A stretch of 64,000 nt of DNA from a virus (IMGVR_UViG_3300029555_000004), one strand, 5' to 3'; positions 7,992 to 62,567 are shown, counted from the stretch's first letter. Translations and numbers: made by a program. Notes: a model not told the origin generated them from the sequence alone.

Positions 7992-8063
7992 TGGGCTATC
8001 GCCAAGTGGTAAGGCCGTGGAATTTGACTCCACAATTCGTTGGTTCAAATCCAACTAGCCCAG
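7992..8063 (+). tRNA. tRNA-Gln (anticodon TTG)
   Basis: Hand-folded cloverleaf: acceptor TGGGCTA/TAGCCCA, D arm GCC..GGC, anticodon arm GTGGA-ATTTGAC-TCCAC, T arm GTTGG-TTCAAAT-CCAAC. Confidence 0.85.
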
Positions 8064-8276
8064 TTTGCAGTATTTAATATGCTGTAAAGGATTTTAAGCT
8101 TTCATAAGAAACACCTATAGCCTTCTAGCCTAGATGGGGCTGATTAAAGGGACTTCAAATATCCCGGAAGGCGTATCTGAAGTATCAGGAGTATTTCAGA
8201 AAACCTTTGTTATAGTTGGTGGTTAAGAACTGTAACAGTGCCAGTTTGGTTACCAGTATTGCCAACTGGTATCTCA

Positions 8277-8349
8277 GGAAGCTTAGTTCAGCGGTAAGAG
8301 CAACGGCCTCATAAGCCGTAAGTCCTGGGTTCGAATCCCAGAGCTTCCA
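8277..8349 (+). tRNA. tRNA with CAT anticodon (elongator Met or Ile2)
   Basis: Acceptor GGAAGCT/AGCTTCC, D arm GTTC..GAGC, anticodon arm ACGGC-CTCATAA-GCCGT, T arm CTGGG-TTCGAAT-CCCAG. Confidence 0.85.
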
Positions 8350-8698
8350 TTTCTTCTAAATGCCATTCATCCGTAATATGGGTGGAAAAAACTTCCAGTT
8401 GAGCGTGTGGATCAGGTAAATTATAGGTGCGATACGGCGCAGCCTAAATGGATCTGGTTTCCAAGCTGGAATGCATCTTGGAGTTAAAGAAATCAGCGCA
8501 GCGCACGCTGATTAAAGGAGTTTTCAAAAGATGCGAACCATAAGCCATTAAAGTTGTGCATAAAAATACTCGTGGAGCATACCACGGTTATCAAAAAGCC
8601 GCCAGGGTTGCCAGTAAGCGTACCGCAAATAAAGAAAACTGGATAGTGGAAAGCATAACACGATAAACCTATTGCTAACCCGGTTTTTCCGGGTTATT

Positions 8699-8770
8699 CG
8701 GAAAGTGCAAGTAACTGGGAACGGCCTGGTCGTAGACTAGGTCTTAATGGTTCGAATCCATTCTTTCCGT
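8699..8770 (+). tRNA. tRNA-like element, possibly a degenerate tRNA-Tyr (GTA)
   Basis: The acceptor stem CGGAAAG/CTTTCCG and T arm AATGG-TTCGAAT-CCATT are good. The anticodon arm CCTGG-TCGTAGA-CTAGG has C at position 33, and I cannot fold a D stem. Confidence 0.35.
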
Positions 8771-9273
8771 TCCGTATAGTGGCGAAATATGTAGACGCTA
8801 TTGTGGTAGCATAGGTTTCAACCCACAACTTAGGTGACCTAAGTCGACAGCATGATAGGTGTAAATCCTATCCTATACGGACGTTTGGCGTGTTGAGTGA
8901 TAACACACCTGATTGAAAAGTGGCGGAACTATTGACGGTGATGAATCCGATACAATAGAAAGGCAGACGCAGAGGATAGTACATCATAATGGGTGAGTAT
9001 GTGTCTTAGGACATGGGATGTACATAGAAGTTCAAATCTTCTCTTTTCAATTCTATCTACCAAGTGTAGATTGGAAATCTGACTTTAGCATAGCTATTGT
9101 TAGTTCTCGCACATAAATGAGGATTTGTTTGTGTGCGTTCGTGCAGGCATATAGACGCAACTCACTAGCGATCTTGTGCAAAAACTTTTTAGAGAGATAA
9201 GACCAATGCCCGTGAGGAGTGATAGTCGGGGATTCTAAAAAAATCATCTTGTTTAGCGTTTGAGGATGAAAAA

Positions 9274-9345
9274 AGAAACATAGCTCAGTGGTAGAGCAAT
9301 GATATCCAATATCATGTGACACAGGTTCGATTCCTGTTGTTTCTA
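9274..9345 (+). tRNA. tRNA-Trp (anticodon CCA)
   Basis: Acceptor AGAAACA/TGTTTCT, D arm GCTC..GAGC, anticodon arm ATGAT-ATCCAAT-ATCAT, T arm ACAGG-TTCGATT-CCTGT. Confidence 0.85.
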
Positions 9346-35693: not shown

Positions 35694-35825
35694 TTCGGTA
35701 AAATCAGTGGGCTAGGTTGGCCGCCGAAAAGCGTAATTCCATGATACGTCTGTCCACTGTTTTTATAAATCATGGGTCTGCGACAAGAAAGTAGTCACGC
35801 ATTAACGACATGGAGGTTATCTAAT

Positions 35826-51359: not shown

Positions 51360-51362
51360 CAA

Positions 51363-51396
51363 AAAGTCGACAGGAGTGCTGTCCTATCGACTTTTG
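51363..51396 (+). terminator. intrinsic terminator
   Basis: AAAGTCGA..(inner AGGA/TCCT)..TCGACTTT, then a short T-run. Confidence 0.5.
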
Positions 51397-51757
51397 CCTA
51401 AATTTGTTTACCCTATGTGTTTTGCAGACCGATTGCGTACTTGCTTTCAGCCACATTCTCAGCACCAAATGTTTCCTTGAAACACTTCGCCACTTACGCA
51501 GTTTTGGTTCTGCGATTGAGTTAAAAAGTTTAGCTGCCCATTAGTTGACGAATGTAGGAATTTTGTTCAATACGGTGAACGAAATTGCTTAACGTACTTT
51601 GGTAACGCAGTTTACTCTGCTTGCGACCTACAATAAGGAACAGGGCAAATTCAAAAGTTTGGTCAAAATACACAGCTCCTTTCATTGCCCATTATCAGGG
51701 AATGAAATAATTTTAACACATAGGAAAAATATTTTCAACATAAAGTGAGGTGAAATT

Positions 51758-54439: not shown

Positions 54440-54628
54440 ATGGGAGAAACTAAAAGCACAGATTATATTCCCGAGAACGCCAATGAAGAATATGCACTTC
54501 TGGTTGGAAGGTTAAAGGCATTTGAAGCTTGGGCGAATAGCGTGAACGATTATGATTTCACAAAGGATATGGCATTTAGAATGCTTGGGCTTGGTTTAGA
54601 GGAATCAAAGGAGGAAAAGAAAGAATGA
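54440..54628 (+). CDS. hypothetical protein
   Basis: ORF track. GAAGGAGGA RBS. Confidence 0.5.
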   Translation: MGETKSTDYIPENANEEYALLVGRLKAFEAWANSVNDYDFTKDMAFRMLGLGLEESKEEKKE

Positions 54629-55542
54629 AATGCTTTAAAGGCTTTGACAAGGACTTAAAGTGTAGAGATTTCCAGTATGAAATTGGAAAAGAATACACAG
54701 AAGAAAAAGCAAACATTTGTAATTATGGATTCCATGCTTGTGAATTCCCGATGGACGTATTCGGTTATTATCCTCCTTCAGATTCCAGATATTGTGAAGT
54801 TGATCTTGAAGCGAATGATCAGAAATCACCTGATGATAGCAAGAGAGTTGGGAAGAAAATTTCCGTGAAAGCAGAAATTGGAATTGCTGGAATTATCAAA
54901 GCTGGCGTTGAATACATCAAAGAGCAAGTTAATTGGGAAGATGATAAGACAACCAATACCGGAGATCAGTCAGCGACAACCAATACCGGAGATCAGTCAG
55001 CGGCAACCAATACCGGAAATCGGTCAGCGGCAACCAATACCGGAAATTATTCAGCGGCAACCAATACCGGAGATCAGTCAGCGGCAACCAATACCGGATA
55101 TCGGTCAGCGGCAACCAATACCGGATATCAGTCAGCGGCAACCAATACCGGAGATCGGTCAGCGGCAACCAATACCGGATATCGGTCAGCGGCAACCAAT
55201 ACCGGAGATCAGTCAGCGGCAACCAATACCGGATATCAGTCAGCGGCAACCAATACCGGAGATCAGTCAGCGGCAACCAATACCGGAAATCGGTCAGCGG
55301 CAACCAATACCGGAAATCGGTCAGCGGCAATTGTAGAAGGAAAAGAAAGTATTGCATTAGCTACAGGAATTAATTCAAAAGCTAAAGGAAAAATTGGATG
55401 TTTTATTGTTTTAGCAGAGTGGAAAGAGATCAATTATGAATATCATATTGTAGATATTAAATCAGCAAAAGTAGATGGAGAAAACATTAAAGAAGATACT
55501 TTCTATATGTTGAAAGACGGAAAATTTGTAGAAGCAGATTAA
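54625..55542 (+). CDS. repeat protein: 14 nonapeptide (A/T)TNTG-x-x-SA units between unique N- and C-terminal domains
   Basis: ORF track. AAAGGAGGAAAAG RBS. The repeats read in this frame join cleanly to non-repetitive flanks. Confidence 0.65.
   Translation: MKCFKGFDKDLKCRDFQYEIGKEYTEEKANICNYGFHACEFPMDVFGYYPPSDSRYCEVDLEANDQKSPDDSKRVGKKISVKAEIGIAGIIKAGVEYIKEQVNWEDDKTTNTGDQSATTNTGDQSAATNTGNRSAATNTGNYSAATNTGDQSAATNTGYRSAATNTGYQSAATNTGDRSAATNTGYRSAATNTGDQSAATNTGYQSAATNTGDQSAATNTGNRSAATNTGNRSAAIVEGKESIALATGINSKAKGKIGCFIVLAEWKEINYEYHIVDIKSAKVDGENIKEDTFYMLKDGKFVEAD
54949..55326 (+). repeat. 14 tandem copies of a 27-bp unit
   Basis: (A/G)CAACCAATACCGGA-NAT-NNN-TCAGCG. Apart from the first base of unit 1 (ACA versus GCA), the units differ only at the first base of codon 5 (G/A/T) and at codon 6 (CAG/CGG/TAT). 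Confidence 0.9.
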
Positions 55543-56606: not shown

Positions 56607-57258
56607 TAAGAATGAAGTTCAGATATTTGGCGTAATAATGGATATTCAGCCAGGAACATTTTTCAAGGACGGAGAAAAATTCGTAAGATTCTATATTGGT
56701 GCAAAGCGTACCAGCGGGAACGTAGATTTACTTCCGGTAATTATTGAAGAAAAGCAGACGGAAGGCTTAAAGATTGGAAAACACGCTTATGTTGAAGGGA
56801 GATACATTTCTTCAAACAAACATGAAAGTGGAAAGTCACATTTGATTCTTGAAATCAAAGCGGAAACAATCTGGTGTGGAGAAGGTGATGGGAGCGCAGA
56901 AGGTGAAAACAAAATCATTCTGGAAGGTTATCTTTGCAAGCCTCCTATTTACCGCAAAACACCAATAGGAAAAGAAATCTGTGATTTGATGATTGCTTGC
57001 AATGAATATGACTTGCGAAGAACAGATTATATCCCATGTATAGCATGGTGGAAAGAAGCCAGAGAAGCTGCTGATTTCAAGGTTGGAGATTTCGTAAAAA
57101 TAATCGGAAGAATCCAGAGCCGAATTTATCGGAAAAAATTATCTGGTGATGAAATAGAGCTTAGAACTGCATACGAGGTATCAATAGGGAGGATAATCGA
57201 GCATGAAGGTGGAAGTAAAAAAGATTTCGTTGGAGAATTACAAGAAGTTTCCGAGTAA
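56596..57258 (+). CDS. SSB-like protein with two OB-fold halves (paralog 2)
   Basis: NEVQIFGVIMDIQP... and NKIILEGYLCKPP...TDYIPCIAWWKEAREAADFKVGDFVKIIGRIQSRIY. Confidence 0.5.
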   Translation: MKNNKNEVQIFGVIMDIQPGTFFKDGEKFVRFYIGAKRTSGNVDLLPVIIEEKQTEGLKIGKHAYVEGRYISSNKHESGKSHLILEIKAETIWCGEGDGSAEGENKIILEGYLCKPPIYRKTPIGKEICDLMIACNEYDLRRTDYIPCIAWWKEAREAADFKVGDFVKIIGRIQSRIYRKKLSGDEIELRTAYEVSIGRIIEHEGGSKKDFVGELQEVSE

Positions 57259-59230
57259 GTCTGTAGATTTGTTTCCAAGAACAGAGATTTCTGGCAGAAA
57301 CAGAGAAGGGAAATCCACATTGCAGGACGCATATTTGGACGTTCTGACAGGTAAGATGGCGAATGGTACAGAACCTACTTCTATTCGCAGAAAAGAAAAT
57401 GGCGTGGAAGTGCAAAAGGTTGATGTTGTTAGAGAACTTACACTTGTGATTGATGGAAAAGAAAAAGTGATCCGCAAAGTCACAAAGCAGAAGTGGAGAA
57501 AACCAAGGGGACAGTCAGAAGAGGTGTTCGATGGAAATGAAACTTCTTATGAAATTGACGGATTCCCGGCTAAATCAAAGGATTATACCGAGTTCATCCA
57601 GTCAATAGCAGAGCCTTCAACGCTTCTGATGTGCAGCAATCCAAAACCATTTCTGGACACATTACAGAAGTCAACCGCAGAATCCAGAAAGGTACTGGAA
57701 AAGATGTCTGGTTTCGATATTGCTCAGTTTATGGAAGAGAATCCGCAGTACGCTCATGTGGAAGAAATCACAAAAGGGCATTCCGTAGAAGATACATTGA
57801 AGAAGCTCCGAAAAGAACTGAATGTACAAAAGAAAAAGGTGGATGCCAAAAACACGGAGATTGCATATGAAACCAATCGAAGCGTTGAAGCAGAAGACAC
57901 TTCTTCCTTGGAACCCAAAAAGCAGGAGCTTAATGCGGAGATTTCCAGGCTGGAAGAACAGGAACAGATTCTTGAAGATTCAGCAAAAGGCTATGACAGC
58001 CTTTCATATGAAATCCGTGGTTTGAAATCTTCCAGGGATGGTCTGGTTAGCAAAGCGAATGAATGGTTAAGAGCCAGACAAAAATTTATTTCTGATACAG
58101 TTTCCGAACTTATGTTAAAAAAATCAGAAAAGGAATCAAGCATTCGTATTATTGGAATGGAACTGGATAACCACATAAGGGAAGCAAAACAGGCAAAAGC
58201 TGACTTGGATAGAGCCAGACAGGACTATCCAAGAACCAAAGAAAAGGAGTGGAATGATTCTAGACTGAAAGCTATTGAAGCTGAAACATTCAATGATTCT
58301 GATACCATTTGCCCCGCCTGCGGACAGGAACTGCCGGAAGAACAGGTTGCCGAATTGAAAGCCTCCTTTGAAGAAAAGAAGAAGTTTAGAATTAAAACTG
58401 AATTAACCCAAAAGAAAAATTGGGAATCAGTAAAGCAGAACCAGTTAAAAGGAATTTGTGACCTTGGAAATTCTGCTTCTGCAAAATTAAAGAAAACTAA
58501 CGAGGAAATCAACAAATTACAGTCGGAAATCAGTGCGGCACAGGATGAAGTTACTGAACTCACTAAACAGATTGAGGAAGAACAGTCCAAATTTACGGAG
58601 CTTCCAGAATCTGTAGATATGACAAATGATGAAGAATATCTTGCGGTTACAGCGAGAATTGCAGAACTTGAAGAGAAACTGAAATCATTTGATGATGTTC
58701 CTGGAAAGAAACAGGAATTGAGAATTCAGATCAGCAATGTTATGAAACAGATTTCCAATGTGGATGCAGATATTAAGATTGCACAGGCAGCAGTCACAGA
58801 AAAAGAAAAGCGAGTAGCCGAACTGAATGAGGAACTGAAAAGCCTTGGACAGGTACAAGCCGATATTGAAAAGAACATTGATACCGTTCTTAACTTCTCA
58901 ATTCAGAAAAATAAGGCACTGGCAGAGAAAATCAATCCATTTTTCCATCATTTCCAGTTCAGTTTCCTTGATTACACGATTGAGGGAAATCCAGTGGAAA
59001 CTTGCAAGATGATCTGCAATGGAATTGACTACAATAGCGGATTAAATCATTCCGACAAAATTCTTTGCGAGGTTGATTTACTGAATGGATTACAGGAAAT
59101 GAATGGGCTGAATCTGCCGATTTGGATTGATGATAGCGAATCCGTGAATGTTGATCGACTTCCCACATTAGACAGACAGATGATTGTGCTTAGAGTGACG
59201 GATGGGGATTTGAAAGCGAAAGAACTTTAA
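57203..59230 (+). CDS. Rad50/SbcC-like SMC-family ATPase
   Basis: N-terminal Walker A GRNREGKST, a long coiled coil with a central CPACG (zinc-hook-like CxxC), and a C-terminal Walker B-like LPIWIDDSESV. Confidence 0.65.
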   Translation: MKVEVKKISLENYKKFPSKSVDLFPRTEISGRNREGKSTLQDAYLDVLTGKMANGTEPTSIRRKENGVEVQKVDVVRELTLVIDGKEKVIRKVTKQKWRKPRGQSEEVFDGNETSYEIDGFPAKSKDYTEFIQSIAEPSTLLMCSNPKPFLDTLQKSTAESRKVLEKMSGFDIAQFMEENPQYAHVEEITKGHSVEDTLKKLRKELNVQKKKVDAKNTEIAYETNRSVEAEDTSSLEPKKQELNAEISRLEEQEQILEDSAKGYDSLSYEIRGLKSSRDGLVSKANEWLRARQKFISDTVSELMLKKSEKESSIRIIGMELDNHIREAKQAKADLDRARQDYPRTKEKEWNDSRLKAIEAETFNDSDTICPACGQELPEEQVAELKASFEEKKKFRIKTELTQKKNWESVKQNQLKGICDLGNSASAKLKKTNEEINKLQSEISAAQDEVTELTKQIEEEQSKFTELPESVDMTNDEEYLAVTARIAELEEKLKSFDDVPGKKQELRIQISNVMKQISNVDADIKIAQAAVTEKEKRVAELNEELKSLGQVQADIEKNIDTVLNFSIQKNKALAEKINPFFHHFQFSFLDYTIEGNPVETCKMICNGIDYNSGLNHSDKILCEVDLLNGLQEMNGLNLPIWIDDSESVNVDRLPTLDRQMIVLRVTDGDLKAKEL

Positions 59231-59424
59231 AAAAGAAAGGAACAGCCAGTAACTTGTTTGGCGATAGACTGGCTGCTCCATATGAAATATAGAACAAACT
59301 ATATTTATTATTAAAATAACAGAAATAATTGGCTTAATTAAGTCACAGGTGATTTTGCACCTGGAATGTGAGGAAAATATTTCACTCACAAGAACCTATG
59401 TGAAACCGAATATTGGAAATTGAG

Positions 59425-59583
59425 GTTTGAGATATCTGCAGACCTACATAGGTACAAAAGATGGACAATTTACCATTGAATAGTTTGAGAACCCTATAAA
59501 TTTGCATAGGTACAAAATTATGCCACCGAGAATAACGCTTGTGTTCAGCTTTATATGCCTAAAAGTTCAAATAAGTACAAATC
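59425..59583 (+). CRISPR. degenerate CRISPR-like array (three pseudo-repeats, 22- and 29-nt pseudo-spacers) upstream of the nuclease gene
   Basis: U1 59425-59460 GTTTGAGATATCTGCAGACCTACATAGGTACAAAAG. U2 59483-59518 GTTTGAGAACCCTATAAATTTGCATAGGTACAAAAT. U3 59548-59583. By hand alignment, about 20-24 of 36 positions match the downstream repeat. Confidence 0.5.
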
Positions 59584-59629
59584 AAAATTGCACAATTATA
59601 AAAAAACGCAAAAACGGGGTAAAAAATAA

Positions 59630-61198
59630 ATGGACAATACTATAACAATAACAAGAAAATACGCTCTGATTCCAGAATTTAGTGACCGTAAAGAATGGAA
59701 GAAAAGAGTTTACGATTTTACGATAAATGACTTAGAACAAAAAATTGATTATAGAAATAAGAAGAAACAAGATACTTCTAAATTAGAAAGTCAGCTTGAA
59801 TACATCAAAAATGGCGGTGATTTCACAAGAAGCATGGTGAACAACTATACATATAGTCTCGTGAGTACAGCTATGGAAGAAGAAGCTCGCAGAAAAAATT
59901 ATATTCTGTCTTGGATATTTTCTGAAATGAGAGCTAATAGAGTAGATCAAATGGAATCACTGAAAGACAAGTTCAAATTTGTTTCAGACACAATTAACTA
60001 CGCATATCGTAAAGCTGGAAGTAATAAAGGAAGCTTGTTTGACGAAACGGAAATTCGTTGCATATTGAAATCTTATGGAATTGCTTTTTCACAGGAACTT
60101 ACGAAAGAAATTAAAGAACTTGTGAAGAATGGAGTTCTAGAGGGAAAAGTAGTTATACCTACATACAAATTAGACTCACCATTTACGATTGCAAAATCAC
60201 ATTTTAGTTTTGAGCACGACTATGATTCATTTGAGGAATTATGCGAACATATTAGTGATTCCGATTGCAAAATGTATATGAATTATGGTGGAGATAATAA
60301 AAAAGATGGCATAAATCCTGCTTCTATTGCGCGATTTAGAATCAGCCTTGGACATGGAAAGAATAAGGATGAATTAAGAGCCACATTGTTAAAGGTGTAT
60401 TCGGGCGAATACCAGTATTGTGGAAGTAGTATTCAGATTACAAAAAACAAAATAATTCTTAATCTTACCATGAAAATTCCTAAGATTGAAACTAAGCTTG
60501 ACAAAAACACAGTAGTTGGAGTTGATCTGGGTATTGCTGTCCCTGCAATGTGCGCTTTAAATAACAACATGTATGAGAGATTAGCAATTGGAAGCGCAGA
60601 TGAATTTTTGAGAGTAAGAACTAAGTATCAAGCTCAAAGAAGAAGACTGCAAAAATCGTTGAAAAATTCAAGCGCTGGACATGGAAGAAAGAAGAAATTA
60701 AAAGCATTAGACAGGATGGATAAAGCAGAATCACATTTTGTTGAAACATATTGCCACATTGTAAGTAAACGAGTTGTTGAATTTGCTGTTAAAAACAGAG
60801 CAAAGTACATCAATATCGAGAATCTTAATGGATATGATACAAGCCAATTTATCCTTAGAAATTGGAGCTACTACAAATTACAGCAATATATCACATATAA
60901 AGCAGAACGATACGGAATTGCAGTTAGAAAAATCAATCCTTGCTACACATCACAGGTTTGTAGCGTGTGTGGAAATTGGGAAGATGGGCAAAGAAAGACG
61001 CAGGCATCATTTAAGTGTGCAAACCAAAAATGTGAAAGCCACAAAAAATATAAGTACGGTTTCAATGCAGACTTCAATGCAGCCAGAAATATTGCAATGT
61101 CAACTCTGTTTATGGAAGACGGAGAAGTCACCGAAAAGAAGAAAGAAGAAGCCCGTGAATATTACGGGATTAAAAAAGAAAATAGTAAGGCGGTCTGA
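59630..61198 (+). CDS. cas12f: miniature type V CRISPR effector, Cas12f/Cas14-like (TnpB-derived RuvC nuclease), 522 aa
   Basis: VVGVDLGIAVP (RuvC-I), AGHGRKKKLKAL, YINIENLNG (RuvC-II), CYTSQVCSVCGN...FKCANQKC (zinc finger), FNADFNAARNIA (RuvC-III). An N-terminal half of about 290 aa. CRISPR repeats on both sides. Confidence 0.75.
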   Translation: MDNTITITRKYALIPEFSDRKEWKKRVYDFTINDLEQKIDYRNKKKQDTSKLESQLEYIKNGGDFTRSMVNNYTYSLVSTAMEEEARRKNYILSWIFSEMRANRVDQMESLKDKFKFVSDTINYAYRKAGSNKGSLFDETEIRCILKSYGIAFSQELTKEIKELVKNGVLEGKVVIPTYKLDSPFTIAKSHFSFEHDYDSFEELCEHISDSDCKMYMNYGGDNKKDGINPASIARFRISLGHGKNKDELRATLLKVYSGEYQYCGSSIQITKNKIILNLTMKIPKIETKLDKNTVVGVDLGIAVPAMCALNNNMYERLAIGSADEFLRVRTKYQAQRRRLQKSLKNSSAGHGRKKKLKALDRMDKAESHFVETYCHIVSKRVVEFAVKNRAKYINIENLNGYDTSQFILRNWSYYKLQQYITYKAERYGIAVRKINPCYTSQVCSVCGNWEDGQRKTQASFKCANQKCESHKKYKYGFNADFNAARNIAMSTLFMEDGEVTEKKKEEAREYYGIKKENSKAV

Positions 61199-61395
61199 TG
61201 ATTGCCTTGATCATACAGAAATGTATGCGGCTGATTTCGCAGCCGAAAGGTGAGGATTATTGATATTTTTGAAATCCCAATTAGTTTAAAAACTGTTTTA
61301 ATTACAGCCGTTCACTATTGCGAGTAGTGGAAAATGTAACGTTTTAAAAATAATCACTCACCAAAACCTGTGCTACCTGTGAAATGGAATTTGAG
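61199..61395 (+). ncRNA. candidate tracrRNA-like scaffold / array leader
   Basis: No ORF. Hairpin CGGCTG..CAGCCG (61228-61245). GGTGAG (61249-61254) can pair with CTCACC (61357-61362). ACCTGTG occurs twice (61366-61372, 61375-61381) and is complementary to CACAGGT in the repeat. The last ~45 nt are homologous to 59375-59424. Confidence 0.35.
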
Positions 61396-61563
61396 GTTTA
61401 AGAGGTATATCAAATAACACAGGTACGAAACGACGCAAGCAAAATTGATGCCGCAATTGAGGTTTAAGAGGTATATCAAATAACACAGGTACGAAACATC
61501 TCTGTTAATTGGTTGCTTATTTCGTCCGTTTGAGAGGTATATCAAATAACATAAGTACGAAAC
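61396..61563 (+). CRISPR. mini CRISPR array: three 36-nt repeats, two 30-nt spacers
   Basis: GTTTAAGAGGTATATCAAATAACACAGGTACGAAAC at 61396 and 61462. The copy at 61528 has 3 substitutions. Spacers: gacgcaagcaaaattgatgccgcaattgag and atctctgttaattggttgcttatttcgtcc. Period 66 nt. Confidence 0.8.
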
Positions 61564-61619
61564 TGATGCAATCACGCAACAGCGTGTTAGCAAATATAAA
61601 AAAGAAAAGGAGAATTAAA

Positions 61620-62567
61620 ATGGCAGGAAAAACACAGTTAGCAACAGCAGGAGAACAACAGGCGGCAATTGTAATCAACAATTCATTCATTGATGGGCTG
61701 GTTAAGCAGCTTGAAAAAAAATGCGAATACGGTCTTTCGTTCCCAAAAGACTACAACCTCAGCAATGCGCTCATGGGGGCATATCTGATTCTGAAAGAAA
61801 CAAAAGACAGAAATAATAAGCCAGTTCTGGAATCTTGCACATCCACAAGCATTGCAAACAGCCTTATGAACATGGCGACACTAGGACTTTCAGTTCAGAA
61901 AAAACAGGGTTATTTCATTGCTTATTCCGGTCAGTGCCAGTTCCAGAGGTCTTACTTCGGAAACATTACAATAGCCAGAAGATACGGAATGAAAGATATT
62001 CACGCCGAGATCATCTACCAAGGAGATAAGTTCAAATACCACATTGAAGATGGAAACAAGGTGCTTGATTCCCATGAACAGGATTTTATGAATATTGATA
62101 ATGATAAAATCCTTGGCGCATATGCAGTAGTTCAGATGGAAGATGGAACAAAGCATTTGGAAGTAATGAACATGAAACAGATCAAGCAATCTTGGCTGCA
62201 GGGCTATGGGTACAAAGAAAACGGAAATGGAACACACCAGAAGTTTACCGATCAAATGGCAAAGAAAACAGTTATCAATCGTGCATTAAAGCAGATCATT
62301 AACAGCCACGGTGATGTTTTTGTACAGGAAGCTGACGAAAACACAGAGGATATTCCAAAACAGGATATTATTGAACAAGACGTTGCTTATGAAATTAGTG
62401 AGAATTCAAACACAGAAGAATTCATTCCACAGACAGAAGCAATCGAAGAAAAGCCAAAGCAGCCAACCGTAGCCGAAACCGTAAAAACAGCAGAGAAAGA
62501 ACCAGTCCCGGAAGCAGAGCCAGTGGAAACAGAAATTCCGTCATTTATGAGCCAGGAGGAAATGTAG
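61620..62567 (+). CDS. recT: RecT-family single-strand annealing protein
   Basis: ORF track 61509..62567. Start moved to ATG 61620 behind AAAGGAGA. SIANSLMNMATLGLSVQKKQGYFIAY...FQRSYFGNITIARRYG..IHAEIIYQGDKF is a RecT pattern. Confidence 0.75.
   Translation: MAGKTQLATAGEQQAAIVINNSFIDGLVKQLEKKCEYGLSFPKDYNLSNALMGAYLILKETKDRNNKPVLESCTSTSIANSLMNMATLGLSVQKKQGYFIAYSGQCQFQRSYFGNITIARRYGMKDIHAEIIYQGDKFKYHIEDGNKVLDSHEQDFMNIDNDKILGAYAVVQMEDGTKHLEVMNMKQIKQSWLQGYGYKENGNGTHQKFTDQMAKKTVINRALKQIINSHGDVFVQEADENTEDIPKQDIIEQDVAYEISENSNTEEFIPQTEAIEEKPKQPTVAETVKTAEKEPVPEAEPVETEIPSFMSQEEM

Follow-up and report, generated by a model that had tools for sequence, protein, structure and literature searches.

The systems nearest to the locus discussed here are those of miniature type V-F1 CRISPR-Cas, whose effectors are the Cas12f1 proteins of Clostridia and Bacilli, namely CnCas12f1 (8HR5), Al3Cas12f (9NZO, 9NZR), AsCas12f (7WJU, 8DZJ, 8J12) and SpCas12f1 (9I8Y). 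In solved relatives, Cas12f forms an asymmetric homodimer on one guide RNA (PMC12255294), and the absence of adaptation proteins is the norm in V-U3 loci, the former name of this subtype (PMC7229846). V-F1/V-U3-like and Cas14j/k effectors have already been reported on viruses (PMC12607003), so that the notion of a phage-borne Cas12f as unprecedented does not hold; phage-borne miniature type V effectors and virus mini-arrays in interviral conflicts have likewise been described (PMC11656645), and the kind of system is therefore known. Here we analyze a 64,000-nucleotide (nt) stretch of viral DNA, IMGVR_UViG_3300029555_000004 (the window), in which a single cas12f gene is flanked on either side by a self-contained guide cassette of the same strand, the whole set between genes for an SbcC-like ATPase and RecT. 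Judged from the sequence, the locus is highly likely to be a working CRISPR-Cas12f system of type V-F1 that a tailed gut phage carries as accessory cargo where its SbcC-like and RecT genes meet.

The cas12f gene (59630-61198, plus strand), recognized by its open reading frame (ORF), motifs, profiles and predicted fold, occurs as a single copy in the window and encodes 522 amino acids (aa). Its product carries the RuvC-I motif GVDLGI at residue 297 (D299), the RuvC-II motif INIENL at residue 394 (E397), the RuvC-III motif NADFNAARN at residue 479 (D481) and a complete Cys4 zinc ribbon (CSVCGN at 444 and CANQKC at 463; C444/C447/C463/C468). The ORF, these motifs, three downstream repeats, their spacing and the distances between the features had been listed in a preliminary description made from the sequence alone, and all were found in place. 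That description had raised the possibility that the assigned RuvC residues miss the catalytic positions; in PDB sequence alignments, the RuvC Asp/Glu/Asp and zinc-ribbon motifs align residue by residue with those of CnCas12f1 and Al3Cas12f. Among PADLOC profiles, Cas12u3 (expect value (E) 2.8e-100) and Cas12f (7e-97) scored best, with Cas12b, Cas12j and Cas12c at 1e-4 or weaker (Cas12j 7e-4), and Pfam returned Cas12f1-like_TNB (1.9e-17), with OrfB_IS605 also above its cut-off. The top matches of a PDB sequence search were all Cas12f, led by CnCas12f1 (8hr5; 2e-70) and including Al3Cas12f (4e-62) and AsCas12f (~1e-39). When an AlphaFold2 monomer model (mean predicted local distance difference test score 85) was given to Foldseek, ranks 1-22 were all Cas12f and TnpB appeared at ranks 23-24; the top match was again CnCas12f1 (2.4e-25, 32% identity over 517 columns), with Cas12g, Cas12p, Cas-lambda and Cas12k far lower, and the N-terminal region of ~290 aa aligns along its full length with CnCas12f1. 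By these profiles, alignments and the modeled fold, the 522-aa protein is a Cas12f of type V-F1 and not a transposon TnpB. The preliminary description had come to the same view, and the profile and structure comparisons that it proposed, now carried out, place Cas12f above TnpB, with PADLOC, the PDB search and the Foldseek ranking in agreement; its emphasis on a very small nuclease was misplaced, 522 aa being an ordinary size for a Cas12f, within the range of about 400-700 aa of V-F1 effectors. Assignment to Cas12p (the "Cas12 hacker"; Foldseek rank 27, E 6e-9), Cas-lambda (Foldseek rank 33) or Cas12j (by its profile score) was weighed and rejected.

The ratio of nonsynonymous to synonymous substitution rates (dN/dS) against relatives is 0.06-0.20, and cas12f is therefore considered to be under purifying selection. 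The family comprises 1,448 homologues at E below 1e-10 and is frequent among the viral contigs of IMG/VR (46-175 kb). It is nearly absent from the species-representative genomes of GTDB, where the two close matches are Clostridium sp. AF37-5 (58%) and a Treponema-labeled metagenome-assembled genome (56%); these matches give a weak hint of a Clostridia host. A BLAST search of the whole locus against GenBank phages found no DNA match, and the protein matches in those phages were only TnpB-like "transposases", many in number and 25-33% identical. In four homologues of our alignment A4 (P0091, P0099, P0104 and P0117), the RuvC-I Asp (residue 299 column) is replaced, giving GVNLG or GVALG; linked changes (CYNAQ in place of CYTSQ, and different residues close to RuvC-III) and large clusters (P0091 stands for 415 members) mark this subclade, which, from its sequences, probably consists of nuclease-dead, binding-only derivatives.

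The downstream mini-array (repeat type A; 61396-61563, plus strand), delimited by a repeat scan and protospacer matches, holds 36-nt direct repeats at 61396, 61462 and 61528, with a period of 66 nt and two 30-nt spacers. Repeat A, GTTTAAGAGGTATATCAAATAACACAGGTACGAAAC, is identical at 61396-61431 and 61462-61497, and the terminal copy (61528-61563) has 3 mismatches. The cas12f stop lies 198 nt ahead of the first of these repeats, and 56 nt separate the end of the last one (61563) from the recT ATG (61620). The effector had been described as flanked by repeat arrays, and a second array, of another repeat type, does lie upstream (repeat type B; 59425-59518, plus strand), as found by the repeat scan and by comparison with relatives: repeat B, GTTTGAGATATCTGCAGACCTACATAGGTACAAAAG, at 59425-59460 is followed by a 22-nt spacer (59461-59482) and a degenerate terminal repeat (59483-59518). 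Repeats A and B, searched for by a Hamming-distance scan, are of different types, 63% identical to each other, and have no internal palindrome. These repeats, accompanied by other spacers, are found again in more than 15 related contigs of viral and metagenomic origin, and the arrays are therefore not due to chance.

In addition, each array has its own trans-activating CRISPR RNA (tracrRNA)-like scaffold directly upstream, whose anti-repeat covaries with its own repeat in the aligned sequences; the tracrRNA dependence suggested in the preliminary description is thus supported in silico. In the window and in the cassettes of relatives L001-L013, the module before each mini-array has the order hairpin 1, hairpin 2, 8-nt anti-repeat, 15-30-nt linker and a TTTGAG abutting repeat 1. 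The scaffold of the upstream cassette B (59330-59424, plus strand), delimited by covariance model, fold and covariation, has stem 1 at 59346-59351/59358-59363, stem 2 at 59368-59372/59385-59389, the anti-repeat ACCTATGT at 59394-59401, predicted to pair with the repeat segment ACATAGGT (59446-59453), and the leader-repeat junction AATTGAG at 59418-59424. That of the downstream cassette A (61212-61395, plus strand), delimited by covariance model, fold and alignment, has stem 1 at 61228-61233/61240-61245, stem 2 at 61249-61254/61357-61362 with a ~100-nt insertion in its loop (61255-61356), the anti-repeat ACCTGTG at 61366-61372, matched by the repeat segment CACAGGT, and the junction ATTTGAG at 61389-61395. 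Further matched anti-repeat/repeat pairs among the cassettes are ACCCATGT with ACATGGGT and TAGTATGT with ACATACTA. When 15 cassettes are aligned, pairing in the three helices reaches 96%, compared with 21-45% when the partners are slid, and 11 pairs show compensatory changes; RNAalifold independently gave the same three helices, as did the minimum-free-energy fold of each cassette alone.

A covariance model of this module (R1) finds exactly two cassettes in the window, at 59330-59460 (102.8 bits, E 4.5e-20) and 61212-61431 (99.4 bits, E 2.5e-19), and it also has matches flanking cas12f on both sides in relatives of only 56-58% identity (L017, L018). The number of cassettes varies, with one upstream and four to five downstream of cas12f in L009 and L012. 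Rfam assigned no known family to the scaffolds at either gathering or relaxed thresholds. In a relative that is 56% identical (L013, 5659-5792), the cassette upstream of cas12f contains one repeat only, which stops ~20 nt short of that gene's start codon, so that the "spacer" would be the ribosome-binding site and start region of cas12f; this lone repeat could be an autoregulatory guide or a mere terminal repeat.

The spacer search proposed in the preliminary description was run and yielded viral and gut-metagenome matches. Spacer 1 (61432-61461) matches at 30/30 positions in two other IMG/VR viral contigs, of a co-occurring rival phage (L015 and L016), where the match falls within a long tape-measure-like ORF, and its protospacer has the 5' flank cTTTG followed by GACGCAAG. 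Spacer 2 (61498-61527) matches at 30/30 positions in five human-gut metagenome contigs of a ~10.8-kb element, with the 5' flank TTTA followed by ATCTCTG. The 22-nt spacer of the upstream array matches the same element at 21/22 positions on the other strand, ~25-30 nt from the spacer-2 site, with the flank ATAG, which is not T-rich. Spacers of relatives point to the same two targets: L001_dn (29/30), L007_dn1 (28/30) and L035_up1 (28/30) match the rival phage, and L007_up1 (30/30) and L007_dn2 (29/30) match the small element. Positions -3 and -2 are TT in each of the seven good protospacers (TTTG, ATTT, TTTC, CTTT, TTTA, TTTA and TTTC), and these seven sites imply a putative 5'-NTTN protospacer-adjacent motif (PAM), with no shared 3' motif seen at the protospacers. 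As this PAM is common to spacers from both repeat types, one NTTN effector would serve both arrays. Three copies of the ~10.8-kb element (L023, L029 and L034), matched over a 27-nt search pattern and with a 3' end that fits the L006-type variant of spacer 2, have TCTA and not TTTA 5' of the spacer-2 protospacer; with C for T at -3, the NTTN motif would be lost, which may represent natural PAM escape.

The ~10.8-kb element encodes an integrase, a helix-turn-helix regulator, a CHC2 zinc-finger protein, a D5_N primase-helicase and a TerS-like protein; it adjoins trpS in contig L038, relative to which the 10,787-nt contig L028 is circularly permuted. When ten spacers were concatenated and compared with GenBank phages and PLSDB plasmids, no match was found, and the targets came only from the IMG/VR and metagenome scans. 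No protospacer lies in the window: spacer 1 has there no match within 3 mismatches other than the array itself, and blastn-short with all spacers gave no other window match longer than 19 nt. The preliminary description had proposed inter-virus or anti-plasmid conflict: the former is upheld by the 30/30 matches to a phage and to the small element beside a T-rich PAM, and the latter is left without support by the lack of a PLSDB match. Given the matches to a rival phage and a satellite-like element, the locus most likely serves as a weapon in the competition between mobile elements within a shared host, a role read from these matches and from analogy. A further link to the spacer-1 target lies in the insertion of the downstream scaffold, where 61304-61330 is exactly identical over 27 nt (ACAGCCGTTCACTATTGCGAGTAGTGG) to L015 5153-5179 (minus strand), where a terminator-like hairpin follows the replication-initiator gene of that phage; recombination or a small mobile hairpin could account for the shared stretch.

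We propose that each cassette, a promoter-proximal scaffold plus a mini-array, would be transcribed as a single RNA in which the anti-repeat pairs with the 3' part of the repeat, leaving free a ~7-nt repeat tail and the downstream spacer. The first repeat-spacer unit and the scaffold would then constitute a natural guide resembling a single-guide RNA. Cas12f would bind this guide, probably as a homodimer by analogy with its solved relatives, and the complex would recognize the 5'-NTTN PAM and cut matching DNA by its single RuvC site. It is possible, if doubtful, that the whole acts as a modular multi-guide weapon, with one effector served by several duplicated and diverged cassettes (two here, up to five or six in relatives) and dependent on the host for adaptation. 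Divergence of the cassettes may protect cas12f from deletion by recombination between flanking repeats, or may evade repeat-mimicking inhibitors.

The arrays are subject to turnover. Among phages with 92-100% identical Cas12f, the trailer-end spacers and the degenerate terminal repeat are shared and the leader-end spacers are unique; in L007 and L008, the upstream array is longer by one leader-proximal repeat-spacer unit, and the Cas12f of L008 is identical to that of the window. Such leader-end differences among near-identical phages indicate polarized, ongoing acquisition, with new spacers entering at the leader-proximal end. As the preliminary description had stated, cas1, cas2 and cas4 were not found: Cas1, Cas2 and Cas4 are absent from the best 25 of the 67 PADLOC families matched by the 88 window ORFs of at least 80 aa, among which the scan did recover cas12f; the phage genome may exceed the window, related contigs being 58-84 kb long. 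Because no adaptation genes were found on the phage, spacers are most likely integrated in trans by host Cas1-Cas2.

Repeats of 36 nt with spacers of 30 nt are typical of type II-A systems. The leader-repeat junctions read ATTTGAG/GTTT at 61389-61399 and AATTGAG/GTTT at 59418-59428; all 15 aligned cassettes keep TTTG unchanged, and this segment is unpaired in the RNA model. ATTTGAG/GTTT is the leader-anchoring junction of group-1 type II-A systems, required for spacer integration (PMC5382924). From the II-A-like junction and the repeat and spacer lengths, we tentatively propose that a host type II-A Cas1-Cas2-Csn2 might load these arrays for a type V effector, a cross-type adaptation hijacked by the virus. 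As the protospacers have no common 3' motif, PAM-compatible spacers would, under II-A adaptation, be kept by selection and not picked by Cas9. A rather unlikely alternative retains the same interference mechanism and has the spacers gained without Cas1-Cas2, through recombination between the arrays of co-infecting phages aided by RecT/SbcC, with TTTGAG serving as an RNA element, for instance as a pseudoknot partner of the AAAC at the 3' end of the repeat. Such an origin would suit a cassette that sits in a recombination module of a phage with no adaptation genes found, and whole cassettes are indeed common to, and shuffled among, relatives; moreover, UUUG:AAAC-type pseudoknots between tracrRNA and the repeat 3' end have been reported for small Cas12 effectors (bioRxiv 10.1101/2025.01.20.633832). 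However, the strict leader polarity and constant 30-nt spacers are the signature of insertion by an integrase, and the ATTTGAG/GTTT junction is the one needed for adaptation in group-1 type II-A systems (PMC5382924). Furthermore, TTTG is invariant but the 3' tail of the repeat varies (GAAAC, AAAAG, AAAGC and TGAAA), so that the pseudoknot pairing is not clearly maintained.

Two further alternatives concern the effector itself. The locus could be a decaying relic, or its protein a binding-only regulator that does not cut DNA, with arrays left from an ancestral bacterial locus; the tiny arrays of one or two spacers, the degenerate terminal repeats, the upstream spacer cut to 22 nt with a match that has no PAM, the insertion in the downstream scaffold, and the homologues without the RuvC-I Asp (P0091, P0099, P0104 and P0117), which indicate that binding-only derivatives exist in the family, would all fit this account. 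We nevertheless regard it as improbable, because D299, E397 and D481 are kept, cas12f is under purifying selection, two of the three spacers have 30/30 matches with the right PAM to elements of the same habitat, and the differences in leader-end spacers at 92-100% Cas12f identity indicate recent acquisition. Still less probable, indeed very remote, is a transposon TnpB of the IS200/IS605 type whose flanking RNA is an omega RNA and whose repeats are incidental right-end duplications, even though Pfam OrfB_IS605 and NCBIfam guided_TnpB score above their cut-offs, the scaffold-plus-guide arrangement resembles an omega RNA, and GenBank phages hold many TnpB "transposases" that are 25-33% identical. 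Cas12f profiles and structures score far above TnpB, the N-terminal region of ~290 aa matches CnCas12f1 over its full length, the repeats part different spacers that match foreign elements beside a PAM and turn over with leader polarity, and the gene is single-copy at a fixed SbcC-RecT position in relatives. There is also no TnpA-sized ORF within 59231-61619, a region in which no formal search for left-end and right-end hairpins was made. Taken together, these observations largely refute the TnpB alternative. An effector-less viral mini-array was also considered and rejected, as an intact effector lies between the arrays and the 3' parts of the repeats covary with the tracrRNA-like scaffolds encoded alongside.

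Several points weigh against a functional V-F1 locus and temper our confidence in it. We infer transcription, RNA processing, cleavage and the PAM from the sequence. Cassette B may be inactive in this particular phage, as its only spacer is 22 nt long, has no T-rich PAM at its match and precedes a degenerate repeat. The ~100-nt insertion in the stem-2 loop could impair the downstream scaffold, and most characterized Cas12f tracrRNAs are longer than the scaffold predicted here (~95 nt plus the repeat). Within NCBIfam, only the broad guided_TnpB model scored above its cut-off, the protein falling below that of Cas12f2. The Foldseek template-modeling scores are low (0.35-0.41), which is probably due to a different orientation of domains in the unbound model. 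Finally, the ~10.8-kb integrative element resembles a phage satellite in gene content and size only.

The setting of the locus in a phage recombination module, as given in the preliminary description, was verified by PHROGs. The SbcC-like ATPase gene (57203-59230, plus strand; phrog_77, E 1.7e-43) forms the left border of a variable junction and recT (61620-62567, plus strand; phrog_148, E 8.2e-68) the right border. PHROGs also recognized genes for the terminase, portal, major head protein, tape measure and a tail protein, and the window is a tailed-phage genome. We surveyed the SbcC-RecT gap in 80 phage loci anchored on RecT. The gap is essentially empty (~0.03-0.36 kb) in 25 of the 80, measures 2,335 nt and contains cas12f in 5, and is 0.4-2.9 kb without a Cas12f match in 49; the remaining locus lacks the SbcC side. 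Three inspected gaps without cas12f hold other genes, such as a 412-aa ORF or a pair of 190 aa and 225 aa. The SbcC-RecT junction is thus a hotspot for cargo, and the cas12f locus is accessory cargo there. The alternative cargo, seen among L040-L119 (e.g., L040 2077-5000, L045 2363-5000 and L064 3093-5000), consists of a 190-aa (or 155-aa) plus 225-aa pair with ~1 kb of non-coding DNA, or of the 412-aa ORF.

In relatives, cas12f occupies the same position between SbcC and RecT. The SbcC-like neighbor in L010 and L011 is only 29% identical, against 77% for Cas12f, and this difference in sequence suggests that the cassette moves between phages. One homologue, P0093 (672 aa, 63% identical to the query), combines N-terminal SMC/AAA domains (PF13175, PF13476 and PF02463) with the Cas12f TNB domain; it probably results from gene calling that merged the neighboring SbcC-like and cas12f genes, and suggests that the two are adjacent in more distant relatives as well. 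Elsewhere in the window, the ORF at 54625-55542 contains, at 54946-55279, slightly varying tandem copies of a 27-nt (9-codon) unit, GCGGCAACCAATACCGGAGATCAGTCA, whose number and unit sequence differ among sister phages (L001 1090-1642; another unit in L005 and L007), and its product looks like a hypervariable repeat protein. Rfam models above the gathering score were FuFi-1 RNA (125.7 bits) and int-alpA RNA (47.7 bits), and three tRNA genes (Gln-TTG, Met-CAT and Trp-CCA) are present; FuFi-1, int-alpA and the tRNAs are listed together at 51361-51552 (minus strand), 35705-35775 (plus strand) and 7992-9345 (plus strand).

Seed et al. are said to have described in 2013 a type I-F CRISPR-Cas system of phage ICP1 that acts against the PLE satellite of Vibrio cholerae, and ICP1 reportedly has its own cas1 and cas2-3. 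The present locus would extend the logic of ICP1 versus PLE to type V-F and the human gut, and offers a natural, sequence-documented example of a tailed gut phage of ordinary size that carries a miniature class 2 CRISPR system and whose targets in its habitat have been identified. In the literature that we searched, we did not find described the multi-cassette layout, natural targets that include a satellite-like element, the II-A-like junction or the hotspot context. That junction gives a testable answer to the question of how V-U3 loci without cas1 and cas2 obtain spacers; if true, II-A loading of type V arrays would mean that a virus has hijacked adaptation across types and uses it against a phage satellite and rival phages. 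Furthermore, the 522-aa Cas12f clade (~1,450 homologues), with its compact predicted scaffold, putative NTTN PAM and natural, putatively orthogonal scaffold-repeat pairs, could be tried for multiplexing.

Like that of ICP1, this phage CRISPR system has spacers that match related phages as well as a small integrative element equipped with integrase, replication and packaging-type genes, and it gains spacers at the leader end; unlike ICP1, the present system is of class 2 type V-F and not of class 1 type I-F, cas1 and cas2 were not found in it, and the satellite nature of its target is presumed. Archaeal mini-arrays have no effector of their own, whereas this locus has one. The locus shares with IS200/IS605 TnpB the RuvC and zinc-ribbon core, an ancestral relationship and a scaffold RNA placed directly 5' of the guide on one predicted transcript; unlike TnpB, it has no recognized transposon ends or TnpA, a larger N-terminal half, an array matching foreign DNA in place of a single transposon-end guide, a single copy and a fixed position.

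With the virus-encoded systems Cas-phi/Cas12j, Cas-lambda/Cas12l and Cas12p, and with the phage-associated Cas14j/k and V-F1/V-U3-like effectors, our locus has in common a compact type V effector, a small phage array, no adaptation module and a presumed role against competitors. Cas-phi and Cas-lambda are not known to need a tracrRNA; here, in contrast, there is one tracrRNA-like scaffold per array. Cas12p uses a GTN PAM and the host protein TrxA. The closest likeness remains with the Cas12f1 systems of type V-F1, which likewise have a miniature effector with WED/REC domains, a tri-split RuvC and a zinc ribbon, a tracrRNA, here a predicted one, encoded beside the array, and no cas1, cas2 or cas4 found. 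The putative 5' PAM is T-rich, as are those of AsCas12f, OsCas12f and Al3Cas12f, whereas that of CnCas12f1 is C-rich and not of the NTTN form. Unlike the solved Cas12f proteins, ours is only ~32% identical to the nearest, is phage-borne and has a shorter predicted scaffold (~95 nt before the repeat); and unlike the V-F1 Cas12f1 loci, this one has two cassettes (up to five or six in relatives), whose divergent repeats and private tracrRNA-like scaffolds would be served by a single effector gene.

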